Shown piece by piece: positions 10,844 through 25,252 of a DNA stretch of 36,356 bases. A program made the translations under genes and the position numbers. The stretch lies in the NCBI GenBank assembly GCA_002771215.1, contig PCRM01000034.1, positions 1 to 36,356 on the forward strand, in the 5' to 3' direction. The stretch comes from Candidatus Nealsonbacteria bacterium CG23_combo_of_CG06-09_8_20_14_all_40_13. GTDB lineage: Bacteria; Patescibacteriota; UBA1384; UBA12157_A; GCA-002773005. Position 1 is the first letter of the stretch. Every line of letters starts with the position of its first letter. The notes under the pieces are model-generated. The model worked only from the letters and a program-made list of their open reading frames with translations. It did no database searches and was not told the DNA's origin.

Positions 10844-11620
10844 ATGGCGGCATTAACAACAGAAACAGAAGTAGTAAGGATTGCCGGGACGGTGCTCTGG
10901 TGGGGGGAACACGGCTTTGGCTACGTTAAGGCCTCACCGGAAGCCCGCGAGTACTTCGACAAACATGGCCACCCCCTTCCTGAAGACAAGGGTGTCTTCA
11001 TCCACTGGAAAATGGCCTGCCGGCCCAAAGGGTTTGTATGTCTTGCGCCCGGACAGTCGGTGGAGTACACTCCCCAACACGTCGATGGCGAAGGTAAGGG
11101 TTGGCAAGCCACAGATTTCGTAGTTTTGCCAAACACTGAAGGCGTCGTCGTCCCAAATAACCAGGTCAGCGAGGAACGGATGGAGGGCGAAAATATCCTC
11201 TTCAACCCTGCAAAGTCCGCACGGCCACGTCGCGGAAACGGCAAAAAGTTGCCAGGCTTCAAACGGCTTCCAGGCACTTTCTTCGGAACTATCATGCCGT
11301 TGTTCAGCAAGTGGGGAGACGCCTATCTCCGGCTTGACGAGCCGGACAAGATCAAGATCATGGAAGCCATGCAGGTCGTCGGGATTGATTGGATTCTTCC
11401 TGACGACCCAGAAGAGAGGCTGGCGGCCGTCCATGAGGCTTTCCTCTTCCGTAACAGAGTAAAGGAAGGCTGGGAGGGCGGAACGAGGCTGCAGGTTAGT
11501 CTCGTCTGGGAATCCAAAGGTCTGGAGGTGGATAAGGCCCAATACATCGGCCAGACGGCCACGTCTGTCGCCTTCAAAGAGGCAGAAAACGGCAAACCCA
11601 AAGCAACATTCGTCGCCTAG
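10844..11620 (+). CDS. Cold-shock-domain (OB-fold) protein with a probable second OB-like domain
   Basis: GTVLWW..GFGYV (RNP1), VFIHW (RNP2), L.PGQSVEY and GKGWQA; own promoter, RBS and terminator. Confidence 0.75.
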   Translation: MAALTTETEVVRIAGTVLWWGEHGFGYVKASPEAREYFDKHGHPLPEDKGVFIHWKMACRPKGFVCLAPGQSVEYTPQHVDGEGKGWQATDFVVLPNTEGVVVPNNQVSEERMEGENILFNPAKSARPRRGNGKKLPGFKRLPGTFFGTIMPLFSKWGDAYLRLDEPDKIKIMEAMQVVGIDWILPDDPEERLAAVHEAFLFRNRVKEGWEGGTRLQVSLVWESKGLEVDKAQYIGQTATSVAFKEAENGKPKATFVA

Positions 11621-11653
11621 CCCAACTCCTTCAACATCTCCTTCTACCCCAAA

Positions 11654-11690
11654 GGCCCCCCAATGCATTCGCTGCGGGGGGCCATTTTTT
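11654..11690 (+). terminator. Intrinsic terminator
   Basis: GGCCCCCC...GGGGGGCC stem followed by TTTTTT. Confidence 0.8.
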
Positions 11691-16062: not shown

Positions 16063-16091
16063 ATTATAGCACAGAAAAGAGGGTTTGTCAA
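16063..16091 (-). promoter_or_regulatory. Consensus sigma70 promoter
   Basis: TTGACA (16091-16086)-17-TATAAT (16068-16063) with TG extension. Confidence 0.8.
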
Positions 16092-21260: not shown

Positions 21261-21316
21261 TTTTATCTAATGACTAGTGACTGTTGACTAATTGACCCGG
21301 CGCGAAGCGCCGAAGG

Positions 21317-21643
21317 TGCCTAGGGTCAGAATCGAACTGACGACACCATGATTTTCCAATTAATCGTTTCTTCTCTCAATATAAACTTAGTTTACACCGA
21401 GTAAAACGAGGTGGACTATCTCATCTCCGACGTAACGTCGGAGTTGGGCGCTAATATAAGATTATTGTTGGGACTCACTTATTAGTCTCTACACCTTCTC
21501 TGATACCACAGCCCATCAGAGCTTGGCTCGGGATTGTTCGACATTTTGTCGAAGTTTCCCCGAATTCACCCAATTTTCATCCCCGCCTTGCGACGGGACG
21601 GACCGAAAACCAGTCATGTGCTCTACCACTGAGCTACCTAGGC
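21317..21643 (-). tRNA. tRNA-Phe(GAA), split by an intron (exons 21643-21612 and 21356-21317)
   Basis: Spliced: GCCTAGG TA GCTCAGTGGTAGAGC A CATGA CT|GAA AA TCATG GTGTC GTCAG TTCGATT CTGAC CCTAGGC A. Confidence 0.93.
21357..21611 (-). ncRNA. Group I intron (255 nt, ORF-less) inserted after U33
   Basis: Exon ends in U and intron ends in G; IGS TTTTC-GGTC pairs with the 5' exon GACT (U.G wobble) and the 3' exon GAAAA; P AATTCGGGAAAC, Q AATCCCGAGC, R GTAGAGACTA, S GAGATAGTCC; P3 TTGGGTG/CGCCCAA. Confidence 0.93.
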
Positions 21644-21646
21644 ATA

Positions 21647-22327
21647 TTATATTTTTAAAGATAAACCCTTAATCCAACCTTTTAATTTTCTCATCGATTC
21701 TACTTTTTTTATATATATATGTAATGTTCCATATAGTAAAGTGTTATGTTTTCTTTTTTTCTTACTTGATTTACTTATAACAATCTGTGGTCTATAAAAT
21801 TGTTGTTTTTTAGCTTTAAGAATTTTTGCCCAAAATTTTTGCGTTTTTTCTTTTTCAATATTTGGATGTAAATGAATTCGGAATTTGAAAACAGAATTAT
21901 CTATTTTACAAATTTCTATGAAGAACCTCATAATTAACTGAATTATTTTAGGATCTGAATTGCTAAATCTTACAGCACTTTTTTCTTTTTTACCACCTTC
22001 TGCCCAAAATAATCCTAAACCTATCCAAAATAATCTCTCCTTATTTAATTTCGGAATTTCTTTCGCATAACTATTAATTAATTTATTATGTTCAACTTTT
22101 AAAATTTGCGATCTTTTTTTGTTAAAATTCGTAATATTTCTTGCCCAAATAATTTTGGTTTTTAAAATGTTCCGTTTTTTAATAACTCTTGATAAAGGAT
22201 AATTTTTGAACCAAGTTGACAATGTACTCTTCGGAATATTTAAAAGTGTATTTATTTGATTATAACTTTTTCCTTCTTTCCTTAAAAACCAAGCTTGTTT
22301 TCTTTTATTCGAACTGACAATACTCAT
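21647..22327 (-). CDS. HTH plus LAGLIDADG-like putative homing endonuclease, free-standing
   Basis: N-terminal LRKEGKSYNQI..IPKSTLSTW HTH; GLFWAEGGK motif followed by VRFSNSDP; markedly more AT-rich than neighbours. Confidence 0.7.
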   Translation of the reverse strand: MSIVSSNKRKQAWFLRKEGKSYNQINTLLNIPKSTLSTWFKNYPLSRVIKKRNILKTKIIWARNITNFNKKRSQILKVEHNKLINSYAKEIPKLNKERLFWIGLGLFWAEGGKKEKSAVRFSNSDPKIIQLIMRFFIEICKIDNSVFKFRIHLHPNIEKEKTQKFWAKILKAKKQQFYRPQIVISKSSKKKRKHNTLLYGTLHIYIKKVESMRKLKGWIKGLSLKI

Positions 22328-22336
22328 CTTGTTTTA

Positions 22337-22365
22337 ATTATCTCATTGGTTCATATTATTGTCAA
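22337..22365 (-). promoter_or_regulatory. Promoter of the endonuclease-like gene (nearly leaderless mRNA)
   Basis: TTGACA-17-GATAAT, about 10 bp before ATG 22327. Confidence 0.55.
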
Positions 22366-22374
22366 AGTTCAGTA

Positions 22375-22449
22375 TGGTGGGCGACGTAGGAGTCGAACCT
22401 ACAACCTACTGGATGTAAACCAGTCGCTCTGCCATTGAGCCAGTCGCCC
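22375..22449 (-). tRNA. tRNA-Val(TAC)
   Basis: GGGCGAC acceptor, ACTGG-TT TAC AT-CCAGT anticodon arm, GGTTCGACTCC, CCA. Confidence 0.96.
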
Positions 22450-22690
22450 TTAACGCCGCTTTATCAATACTTTAACACCTTCAGCTAAATTTTTCAATCC
22501 AAAAGTTTAAAGATAACCCACGATCGTAGCGAAAATTGAATCTAAACTAAAAAAATATCAAATTCCCAGGTTTAAATTTTCACATAAATCGGACGATCGT
22601 CTAAATTATAGGAAAATCTTAGTAAAAGTAAAGTTTAGCGATTTCTAAGAAACTACCACTGGCTTAGTACTGGTGATAGTTTCTTTTAAT

Positions 22691-22743
22691 AAAAAAGCCC
22701 CAAGTGGTGGAGGTGACTTATATGAAGTCTCACCACTTGGGGC
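22691..22743 (-). terminator. Intrinsic terminator of the candidate large RNA
   Basis: GCCCCAAGTGGTG...CACCACTTGGGGC 13-bp stem followed by TTTTTT on the minus strand. Confidence 0.8.
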
Positions 22744-23392
22744 GGCGCCAGAGAAGGTGCAAGGAAAAGTTTGGCCTGGGAAGGGAGAGAGTTTTTAGCA
22801 ATTTTTCGAGAAAGGCGGCTCGGCGGAGGGGGTTCCCCTACTTAACCGGCTTGTCACTTGTGTTTCCACCAGCGTCGACAACCGGTGGCAAGATAGCCTT
22901 TCTGCCGGATTTATCTCCCATGCGTTTAGTGCATAGGCCGGTTCGCGCCATCTGCCCTACTTCCGACAAAAGAGACAGAACCTTCTTACCGACCCTTACC
23001 CAGGCCAAGAAACGCGGGATTGATGAAGTGCAAAAGAAAGGGGGCAGATCGTTTCCAGTCGCGACGTGCGTGATGGGTCTCATCTCCGCATAGAAACGAC
23101 CTTGGTCGGCTTTCGCCACAAACAGAGCCGTTACTTGGGTTATCCCATTGTGGCTTCCCTCTGTCTGCAGCTCCAGCTATAGCCCGTCTTTCTCTACAAA
23201 CGCAAATCACCAATCCCGAAAAATTTGAGAAAGGGGGGAGAAGCGGCTAATTCGGTCACGTGAGACAAACCGTCCCGCAGGGCAATTGCAGGTCAAATTG
23301 ACCCGCGCCCTGGTGACTATAGCTTCTGTACCATCCCCCTTTCTCAAGTTACCATTAGATAAGTTAATGTTCATCAAACTTTTCAGTTTGAC
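22691..23392 (-). ncRNA. Candidate ~700-nt highly structured RNA of unknown family
   Basis: Perfect promoter, terminator, elevated GC, several 12-15 bp long-range helices with G.U wobbles favouring the minus strand, no convincing RBS-led ORF. Confidence 0.6.
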
Positions 23393-23398
23393 AAAATG

Positions 23399-23427
23399 AT
23401 TATAGTATATACTTTAATTTTTGTCAA
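23399..23427 (-). promoter_or_regulatory. Perfect consensus sigma70 promoter
   Basis: TTGACA (23427-23422)-17-TATAAT (23404-23399). Confidence 0.85.
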
Positions 23428-23527
23428 GGTTTTTAGACAAATTTAAAAGTTTCATGCTAAAATTAACCTATAATAATCAAATGCAAAATCTGCAGCAAAC
23501 GAGATTCATTACCAAAAAAGCTATTTT

Positions 23528-25252
23528 ATGAATAATCTTCAAATCCGCAATTTTGTCATTATTTCTCATATCGACCACGGCAAATCAACGCTGGCCGACC
23601 GGCTTTTGGAGTTGACCAACACTGTGCCTAAAGACAAAATGCGCGCCCAATATTTAGATATGATGGATTTGGAACGCGAAAGGGGAGTAACAATTAAAAT
23701 GGCGCCAGTGAGAATGATTTGGAAAGATTCAATCCTTAACTTGATTGACACTCCGGGCCACGTTGATTTCGCCTACGAAGTTTCCAGAGCTTTAGCTGCT
23801 GTTGAAGGCGCTTTGCTTTTAGTTGACGCCACGGCCGGCATTCAAGCACAGACGCTTTTCAATTTGGAAAAAGCGCAAAAACAAAATTTAAAAATCATTC
23901 CCATAATCAATAAAATTGACTCGCCGGCCGCGCAAATCGAAAAAACACAAGAAGAACTGGTAAGTTTGGGCTTTCAAAAAGAGGAAATTTTGCAAATTTC
24001 CGCCAAAACAGGACAAAATGTCCAAAATGTTTTAAAAGCCATTATTGAAAGAATTCCTCCTCCAATTGAAAATTTACAAAATCCATTAAAGGCCTTAATT
24101 TTTGACTTGCTGTATGACCAATATAAGGGCGTTATTGCCTACGTGCGGGTATTTGACGGGACAATTGCCAAAAACGAAAAAATTAAATTTTTGATAGGGG
24201 AGACAGAAGGGGAGATTTTAGAACTTGGTTATTTTAAGCCGCAGTTTGCTACAGCTTCTAAAATATCCGCCGGCGAGATCGGCTACCTCAAAACCGGCAT
24301 TAAAGAAATTTCAAAAATAATGGTAGGGGACACTATCACGCTCGCCTCTATCGCCCACCCTGAGCAAGATTTAAAAATTGCCGGCTATCAGCAGCCAAAA
24401 CCAATGGTTTTTGCCAGCATTTACCCCATTGAGGGTGAAAACCATAAAAAATTAGCTGACGCGCTTGGGAAATTAAAATTAAATGATTACTCTCTCTCTT
24501 TTAATTTTGAACGGTCAAAAGCATTAGGGGCTGGCTTTCGCTGCGGTTTTTTGGGCTTGTTTCACTTAGAAATTACCAAAGAAAGATTAGAAAGAGAATC
24601 TGCCTTAGAGCTGATAGTTACTTCTCCGACGGTCGACATTCAAGTAACCGAGCACGGCTATCGCGAACCGTATGTTGATTTGGAAATTATCACCCCTCAA
24701 CAATATTTAGGTCAAGCAATGGAGCTAGCGCAATCTCACCGCGGACAATATAAAGAGATAAAATATCTTGGAGACCGGGTAATTGTGCTATACGAGAACC
24801 CGCTGTCTGAAATTATTATTGGTTTTTACGACCAGCTAAAAAATTTATCCGAGGGCTATGCCTCAATGAATTATCAGTTTTCAGGTTATAGAGATGCCGA
24901 TCTAGTTCAGTTGGATATTTTAATTGCCGGCGAAAAAGTTGAGCCGATGACCCAAATTGTTGCCCGCTCAAAATCAGAATCCACCAGCAGAAATATAGTG
25001 AAGAAATTAAAAGATTTAGTGCCAAGGCAGTTATACAAAGTTTCCCTGCAGGCGGCAATTGGTGCAAAAATCGTCGCCCGTGAAGATATTCCCGCCATGC
25101 GCAAAGATGTTACCGCGCCTTTGTATGGCGGTGATGTAACCAGGAAAAGAAAATTATTAGAAAAACAGAAAAAAGGCAAAAAACGTCTCAAGCACTTGGG
25201 CAAAGTGGACATCCCCAGCGATTTATTTTTAGAGCTTTTGAAAATTGATTAA
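23528..25252 (+). CDS. lepA: Elongation factor 4 (LepA)
   Basis: HIDHGKSTLADRLL, DTPGHVDF, GFRCGFLGLFH and YGGDVTRKRKLLEKQKKGKKR motifs. Confidence 0.98.
   Translation: MNNLQIRNFVIISHIDHGKSTLADRLLELTNTVPKDKMRAQYLDMMDLERERGVTIKMAPVRMIWKDSILNLIDTPGHVDFAYEVSRALAAVEGALLLVDATAGIQAQTLFNLEKAQKQNLKIIPIINKIDSPAAQIEKTQEELVSLGFQKEEILQISAKTGQNVQNVLKAIIERIPPPIENLQNPLKALIFDLLYDQYKGVIAYVRVFDGTIAKNEKIKFLIGETEGEILELGYFKPQFATASKISAGEIGYLKTGIKEISKIMVGDTITLASIAHPEQDLKIAGYQQPKPMVFASIYPIEGENHKKLADALGKLKLNDYSLSFNFERSKALGAGFRCGFLGLFHLEITKERLERESALELIVTSPTVDIQVTEHGYREPYVDLEIITPQQYLGQAMELAQSHRGQYKEIKYLGDRVIVLYENPLSEIIIGFYDQLKNLSEGYASMNYQFSGYRDADLVQLDILIAGEKVEPMTQIVARSKSESTSRNIVKKLKDLVPRQLYKVSLQAAIGAKIVAREDIPAMRKDVTAPLYGGDVTRKRKLLEKQKKGKKRLKHLGKVDIPSDLFLELLKID

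Follow-up and report, generated by a model that had tools for sequence, protein, structure and literature searches.

The stretch of DNA analyzed here lies between lepA and a tRNA-Val gene in the genome of Candidatus Nealsonbacteria bacterium CG23_combo_of_CG06-09_8_20_14_all_40_13, and carries on its minus strand a candidate gene for a large structured non-coding RNA (ncRNA), divergent from lepA and located upstream of tRNA-Val. The window, i.e. the whole sequence analyzed, is contig PCRM01000034.1 (36,356 nt), one of the 46 contigs of a 654,411-bp assembly, 94.4% complete and with a GC content of 39.8%. The host, in all likelihood an ultra-small bacterium of the Patescibacteria/CPR type, is the sole member of its family among the genomes compared; the class- and phylum-level genomes used for comparison all measure ~0.5-1.1 Mb. 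Following the minus strand from lepA to tRNA-Val, the locus includes:

23528-25252, plus strand: lepA, with the domains GTP_EFTU, LepA_C and EFG_C
23399..23427, minus strand: sigma-70-type promoter, -35 TTGACA at 23427-23422, 17-nt spacer, -10 TATAAT at 23404-23399, matching the consensus at 12/12 positions
23370..23395, minus strand: predicted 5'-terminal 11-bp hairpin at the inferred transcript start, mean pair probability 0.91
23225..23347, minus strand: predicted domain 1, closing helix 23347-23335/23237-23225 (13 bp, no G.U) around a multibranch of 5-, 6-, 8- and 5-bp helices
23015..23218, minus strand: predicted domain 2, closing helix 23218-23207/23026-23015 (12 bp, one G.U), RNA positions ~178-381
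22771..23008, minus strand: predicted domain 3, closing helix 23008-22993/22785-22771 (10+5 bp, one bulge), interior poorly defined
22691..22743, minus strand: intrinsic terminator, 13-bp perfect stem 22743-22731/22709-22697, 5-bp inner stem, U6 tail
22449-22375, minus strand: tRNA-Val(UAC), identified by ARAGORN, beginning 242 nt downstream of the candidate RNA in the same orientation

Both junctions of the stretch are bridged by independent contigs from 4 metagenome runs, and the stretch is therefore not an assembly artifact. It is single-copy in the genome, and the sequence is present in 23 groundwater/aquifer metagenome runs, none of which is recorded as RNA. An earlier note on this DNA had pointed to a GC content clearly above that of the flanks. 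This is correct (0.52-0.55, well above the flanks), but not unusual for this genome: dozens of 600-nt windows in the genome, coding ones included, have a GC content of at least 0.49, many span 0.49-0.60, and high GC is consequently not diagnostic here.

Transcription from the promoter would start near 23392. The exact TTGACA-17-TATAAT arrangement is found twice in the window, against 0.01 occurrences expected from shuffled sequences. Perfect consensus promoters with spacers of 16-18 nt are found at 13 sites across the 654-kb genome, and one of them precedes a GC-rich gene with a clear Shine-Dalgarno (SD) sequence and ATG, so that this type of promoter appears to be in use. The second perfect site of the window, at 16063-16091 on the minus strand, has downstream an open reading frame (ORF) of 156 aa (15868-15398) which matches no Pfam family. 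At the other end of the stretch, the terminator stem has a mean pair probability of 0.98; a consensus terminator scanner reported only the inner 5-bp version of it. Promoter and terminator, both of which are found where the earlier note had placed them, are ~700 nt apart, and exactly bracket the folded region.

The RNA was folded from 23395 to 22691 (705 nt) and compared to 20 shuffled sequences. The minimum free energy (MFE) is -285.9 kcal/mol, corresponding to a z of -9.57, and none of the 20 shuffles folds equally well. The value is exceptional: the RNase P RNA of the same genome, used as control, has a z of -6.39, and three other GC-rich stretches of 705 nt have z of -2.49, -0.86 and -4.17. 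Perfect long-range 7-mer complements number 45, versus 12.4 +/- 4.3 in 300 shuffles. The plus strand folds less well than the minus strand (z -7.61), and the minus-strand MFE structure includes 228 pairs, 23 of them G.U. Both the better fold and the G.U pairs agree with the strand of promoter and terminator, as anticipated from the distribution of G.U pairs in the earlier note.

Three domains, separated by linkers of ~6 nt, are closed by helices of 13, 12 and 10+5 bp, whose pair probabilities range from 0.86 to 0.99. All three helices, as well as the inner helices of domain 1, had been described in the earlier note and are present in the computed structure. The interior of domain 2 is made up by helices of 4, 8 and 4 bp, followed by hairpins 2a (13-bp stem) and 2b (12+4+4-bp stem). 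Folded alone, this domain has a z of -5.71 and a well-defined ensemble, in which the MFE structure accounts for 6.9% and pair probabilities are 0.93-0.99. In domain 3 the closing helix is predicted with a probability of 0.86-0.96, but an inner 7-bp helix with one of only 0.10. Cross-domain complementarities suggested earlier do exist: residues 23036-23049 may pair with 22950-22963 (8+4 bp, -14.8 kcal/mol), 23160-23166 with 22973-22979 (7 bp), and 23036-23044 with the 23335-23347 strand of the domain 1 closing helix (9 bp). The putative pseudoknots are sequence complementarities only. Short direct repeats are found 189-193 nt apart (22862/23051 and 23035/23228, with a related copy at 22805/23224), and GAGAAAG-type purine-rich and CUUUCU-type pyrimidine-rich strands recur in all three domains. 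The direct repeats may reflect either the old tandem duplication of a ~190-nt unit, or alternative pairings.

The whole window, searched against Rfam 15 at gathering thresholds, yields tRNAs only. When the region 22300-23700 was compared by cmscan to all 4227 Rfam 15 families at E<=10, tRNA-Val and 15 sub-threshold chance matches were found. No covariance-model match was obtained, even at E<=10, for GOLLD, ROOL, OLE, raiA and HEARO, which we take to be included in Rfam 15. Group I and group II introns do not match the stretch at the same threshold, and no exon context is found. The negative result is meaningful, because the same library finds a group I intron 1.4 kb away, and is in line with the earlier view that the RNA cannot be assigned to a family. 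RNase P RNA and transfer-messenger RNA (tmRNA) are encoded elsewhere in the genome, at C46:35461-35865 (168.1 bits) and C5:7386-7696 (112.3 bits), respectively. The models of small and large bacterial signal recognition particle (SRP) RNA and of 6S RNA match nowhere in the assembly, stretch included, and a giant SRP or 6S RNA was therefore rejected. The Ffh M domain (SRP_SPB) has no match in the assembly either, so that nothing can be deduced from the missing SRP RNA; the lack of SRP RNA, 6S RNA and Ffh may be due to an assembly gap rather than to true loss, the genome being 94% complete.

Additional candidates were considered and discarded. A sponge of the CsrB/RsmZ type is not indicated by GGA motifs (12, versus 11.2 +/- 2.9 in shuffles), and CsrA has no match in the assembly. 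A miniature inverted-repeat transposable element, or other repeat element, was rejected as the stretch is single-copy. An antisense regulator with a long genomic target was discarded, since elsewhere in the genome the stretch finds just chance matches of 14-22 nt (E>=0.36), and the relic of a tRNA-gene array because no match within the stretch is obtained with either ARAGORN or the Rfam tRNA model. A scan of 9 ORFs between 19704 and 26436 revealed no recognizable phage gene.

Four ORFs of 56-129 aa are found in the stretch, and those on the promoter strand measure 93, 75 and 56 aa. The two which are relevant to public annotation are:

22838..23119, minus strand: 93-aa ORF (P0001), judged spurious; no SD motif, no Pfam match, frame lost in the relative described below
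22704..23093, plus strand: 129-aa antisense ORF (P0003 cluster), judged spurious; no Pfam match

None of the four ORFs matches a Pfam family. No SD-like motif is found at a workable distance from any of the 13 candidate start codons on the RNA strand, as monitored in frames of at least 25 codons. Codon log-likelihood ratios (LLRs) of the four ORFs are 0.002 (the 129-aa antisense ORF), -0.136, 0.084 (the 93-aa ORF) and -0.31. Real long genes score 0.259 +/- 0.067, with a minimum of 0.101, and spurious ORFs, represented by those lying within real genes but out of frame, score -0.044 +/- 0.128. The 93-aa ORF, which the earlier note had named as the alternative, falls short of the minimum of real long genes. 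Public gene calls are in conflict at this locus, as the minus-strand P0001 (NCBI, UniRef) overlaps plus-strand predictions of 123-168 aa (P0004/P0005); the latter belong to the cluster P0003-P0014 (NCBI nr, JGI/IMG, ENA, Logan). The stop codon of the plus-strand ORF reads as Gln in 4 of the 12 near-identical members of the cluster, and no match beyond the cluster itself was found among 1.84 billion representatives. Both opposite-strand hypothetical proteins are probably spurious gene calls, and a protein-coding function of the stretch is unlikely.

Searches of protein databases with the ORFs revealed near-identical strain variants and a sole diverged relative. The latter, P0002, is a prediction of 152 aa on a 1460-nt ENA contig, and was found by searching 5.8 billion proteins with the 93-aa ORF. 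The region in common is:

22976..23241, minus strand: block shared by the stretch and P0002, RNA positions 155-420, corresponding approximately to domain 2 plus linkers

According to tblastn, P0002 matches frame 3 over RNA positions 153-236, and frame 1 over RNA positions 229-387. When P0002 is back-translated and aligned to RNA positions 155-420, 133 of the 147 bases that can be determined are identical, and the alignment includes indels of 1, 2, 3 and 6 nt. The match in two frames, along with indels not divisible by three, indicates that conservation of the DNA does not depend on a reading frame. No other observation, in our view, argues as strongly for a constrained non-coding element, and it also points to domain 2 as the probable core of the RNA. 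The first 44 and the last 20 codons of P0002 resemble domains 1 and 3 no more than shuffles do. Only the 3' closing strand of domain 1 falls inside the common block, the interior of the domain having no similarity above shuffles, and no similarity above shuffles is found beyond RNA position 420. As only RNA positions 155-420 are shared, the conserved functional unit may be nearer to 270 nt than to 700 nt.

Under the degenerate back-translation, 71 predicted pairs are aligned on both sides. No change is seen in 59 of them, 4 have changed but can still pair (in one case with a change in each of the two bases), 5 no longer pair and 3 contain gaps. Substitutions located outside hairpin 2a are mostly compatible with pairing, as is the case for G186A, which turns G.U into A-U, and C308U, which turns C-G into U.G. 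Hairpin 2a, in which P0002 has 5 additional nt and many changes, contains most of the broken pairs, but cannot be aligned reliably. Among strain variants, A305G and A189G keep the pairs, both changing A-U to G.U. The contigs of the 4 runs which bridge the junctions are nearly clonal, with 3 single nucleotide polymorphisms and one 1-nt deletion inside the RNA, and population contigs are therefore uninformative for covariation.

The earlier note had placed the RNA next to a tRNA-Val/Phe cluster. tRNA-Val does adjoin the RNA, and a tRNA-Phe(GAA)-like gene exists at 21316-21643 on the minus strand, but is split in the anticodon loop by a group I intron of ~285 nt, the exon halves having been read by eye; this explains the cluster reported. 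The intron matches RF00028 with 50.4 bits, versus a gathering score of 50, over 21388-21673 (E 6e-12), and its fold has a z of -5.35. Both ARAGORN and the gathering scan of the whole window missed the split gene. An ORF of 226 aa with a GC content of 22-28% resides between tRNA-Val and the split tRNA-Phe (21647-22327, minus strand). Only weak N-terminal helix-turn-helix (HTH) Pfam matches were obtained for this ORF, the best with an E of 0.0014, below the cut-off, and no PDB relative was found. A LAGLIDADG-like motif, seen by eye and not reported by any tool, would be consistent with a free-standing homing endonuclease encoded next to the intron.

GC islands of 52-60% are found in the window at 10844-11668, and elsewhere in the assembly at C40:13043-14045, C28:1801-3450, C9:31801-33050 and C27:2701-4500. 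The two islands examined feature long ORFs on both strands, and match no Pfam and no Rfam family. In the C40 island, a perfect consensus promoter is found together with a long 5' hairpin and clear SD and ATG sequences; this island probably represents a genuine GC-rich gene, without an assigned function.

We lean toward the view, which we hold to be fairly probable, that the minus strand of the stretch carries a free-standing gene for a new, lineage-restricted large (~700-nt) structured ncRNA. Several results weigh against it. High GC is common in the host genome, and the plus strand also folds well by comparison with shuffles. Domains 1 and 3 are not recognizably conserved in P0002, and since only the predicted protein sequence of this relative is available, one in three of its bases is ambiguous, too many for covariation to be read from it. 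A hairpin test on the degenerate P0002 sequence is not significant, 777 of 2000 shuffles scoring as well. In P0002 the pair at the end of the 12-bp helix is lost through the U370C change, and under the automatic alignment hairpin 2a loses several pairs; pairs are broken also by the strain variants U187C, in the 12-bp helix, and U350C.

The failure to find homologues points in the same direction. BLAST searches with the 705-nt sequence in 41 relatives and 162 class genomes, and with a 241-nt core in 401 phylum genomes, revealed only matches of 19-31 nt; two short matches in one genus (g15) lie in tRNA arrays, antisense to tRNA. Single-sequence covariance models of domain 1 and domain 2 found nothing in 151 class genomes each, and the model of domain 2 found nothing in 81 loci, namely 80 metagenome loci around lepA and locus L104. 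No match was found in phage records by blastn, nor any homologue by nhmmer in 93 loci and in the genome itself. Degenerate patterns of the core, scanned twice over GTDB species genomes and once over IMG/VR, gave 0, 1 and 0 matches, respectively; the single match is in a Hyphomicrobiales contig, with no match to the domain 2 model. Among metagenome loci anchored on LepA, the nearest other LepA is 55% identical, and the sole identical contig (L015) does not include the RNA side. At least 700 nt upstream of lepA are available in 67 of the 80 loci; an ORF-free gap larger than 500 nt is found in 2 of the 67, and neither is GC-rich. As far as these collections show, the RNA is restricted to one species-level population and one relative, and a distribution as narrow as this may denote a trait which is young or dispensable.

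The narrow distribution would also be expected if the stretch were the relic of foreign or selfish DNA or RNA, such as a decayed intron-like or mobile structured element, deprived of any present role and flanked by a promoter and a terminator that are fortuitous or left over. The intron splitting tRNA-Phe, the AT-rich orphan ORF with weak HTH matches residing between the tRNAs, the lack of conservation of the outer domains in P0002, and the direct repeats, which hint at an old duplication, may all be read in this way. Against a relic, no intron or mobile-RNA family of Rfam matches the stretch at E<=10, though the library finds the intron nearby; the stretch is single-copy, and no transposase or reverse-transcriptase ORF is found in it. 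A 12/12 promoter, expected 0.01 times per window, and a 13-bp terminator which exactly bracket the structure are unlikely leftovers, and the ~90% identity of P0002 over 266 nt, next to flanks no longer recognizable as related, speaks for a constraint acting on the core. We regard this origin as unlikely. It seems quite improbable that the stretch is a functionless GC-rich spacer, the fold of which is a by-product of composition and chance. Many GC-rich stretches reside in the genome, and both strands of this one fold better than shuffles; equal-length GC-rich stretches, however, do not approach its z, long-range complements exceed those of shuffles by far, the core is conserved in P0002, and promoter and terminator exactly bracket the structure.

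The stretch might alternatively be a structured mRNA for one or more small proteins, either the 93-aa ORF or a core of ~40 aa in common with P0002. ORFs of 93, 75 and 56 aa are available on the promoter strand, public databases list P0001 as a protein, and 32 of 36 residues are identical in P0001 and P0002. The conservation, however, extends upstream of the ORF in another frame, and frameshifts flank the shared 36 residues on both sides. SD-like motifs are missing at all 13 starts, in contrast to the clear SD and ATG of the GC-rich gene which elsewhere follows the same type of promoter; codon LLRs are below those of every long gene, no family matches, and searches of 5.8 billion proteins returned nothing beyond the query protein's own cluster and P0002. 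A coding role of this kind is very unlikely. Finally, the RNA could be the long 5' leader, or the precursor, of a unit including tRNA-Val and genes downstream, acting in cis on processing or read-through. tRNA-Val begins 242 nt downstream in the same orientation, and structured spacers are frequent in operons of stable RNAs. The structure nevertheless ends, before the tRNA, in a very strong terminator with a U6 tail; tRNA-Val has its own promoter-like sites (at 22632-22605, TTTACT-16-TATAAT, matching at 10/12 positions, and at 22497-22469, matching at 9/12), and no known leader family matches; a leader is thus highly improbable. We do not think that the RNA is an mRNA or a cis-regulator.

If the stretch is, as we favor, a gene for a structured ncRNA, some known RNAs are comparable. 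ROOL and GOLLD, large ornate ncRNAs of bacteria and phages, are reported to be linked to tRNA genes and to form RNA-only multimeric assemblies (PMC12286853). They share with the candidate a size of ~600-800 nt, a multi-domain ornate fold and the lack of an associated ORF, and the candidate is located immediately beside tRNA genes. The earlier note had referred to these RNAs while proposing a large ncRNA of no assignable family. The strong structure, the signals of its own and the lack of a family match were all found, whereas the likeness to GOLLD and ROOL is one of size and tRNA adjacency. The candidate differs in having no covariance-model match at E<=10, in the lack of any prophage context seen, and in the host, a 654-kb genome of the Patescibacteria/candidate phyla radiation (CPR) rather than one of Bacillota or a phage; moreover, it is known from one species and one related contig only. 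OLE is a highly structured bacterial ncRNA of ~600 nt, reported to act within a ribonucleoprotein (RNP), its biochemical role being unknown. Size and strong structure are similar. In contrast, no Rfam match links the candidate to OLE, its neighbors are lepA, tRNA-Val and an orphan ORF, and the partner genes which flank OLE (oapA and others) are not adjacent. RNase P RNA and tmRNA resemble the candidate in being GC-enriched, strongly folded products of free-standing genes in a small AT-rich genome, with z of the same order, but both are encoded elsewhere and the candidate matches neither model. The group I intron is likewise a structured RNA of several hundred nt from the same tRNA-rich neighborhood; unlike it, the candidate has its own promoter and terminator, no exon context, and no RF00028 match. 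No report of a large ncRNA in Patescibacteria/CPR was found in the literature searched; supplementary motif lists of large-ncRNA surveys could bear on this claim.

Transcription of the ncRNA gene would run along the minus strand, beginning at a consensus promoter and ending at an intrinsic terminator, both belonging to the gene itself. With hairpins at its ends and three domains each closed by a helix, the product would be compact and resistant to nucleases. From the exact bracketing by promoter and terminator, the terminal hairpins and the extreme stability of the predicted fold, we infer an RNA which would be abundant, long-lived and trans-acting. Domain 2 (RNA positions ~178-381) is probably the functional core, because it is kept in the one known relative, and the outer domains would represent fast-evolving peripheral structure. 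The RNA might function as a trans-acting scaffold with domain 2 at its center, be it within an RNP or in an RNA-only assembly of the type formed by other large bacterial ncRNAs; confidence in a scaffold-type mechanism specifically is low. More speculatively, the RNA could be the founding member of a new class, confined to a deep-branching lineage of ultra-small groundwater bacteria and retained in a genome of 654 kb, in which a catalytic or self-assembling domain 2 core of ~200-270 nt is surrounded by a fast-evolving periphery, and which would act as a ribozyme or as an RNA-only assembly resembling ROOL and GOLLD. We consider this a doubtful, if conceivable, extension.

The element can be described at present as an orphan large structured bacterial ncRNA, promising but unvalidated. 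At least two overlapping hypothetical proteins in databases, P0001 and the 12-member P0003 cluster, are probably misannotations of this RNA. To our knowledge, very few classes of bacterial ncRNA larger than 500 nt are known, and each of them opened new biology. That ~0.1% of a 654-kb genome is devoted to a single RNA, with a strong promoter and an extremely stable predicted fold, suggests that this RNA has a real role.

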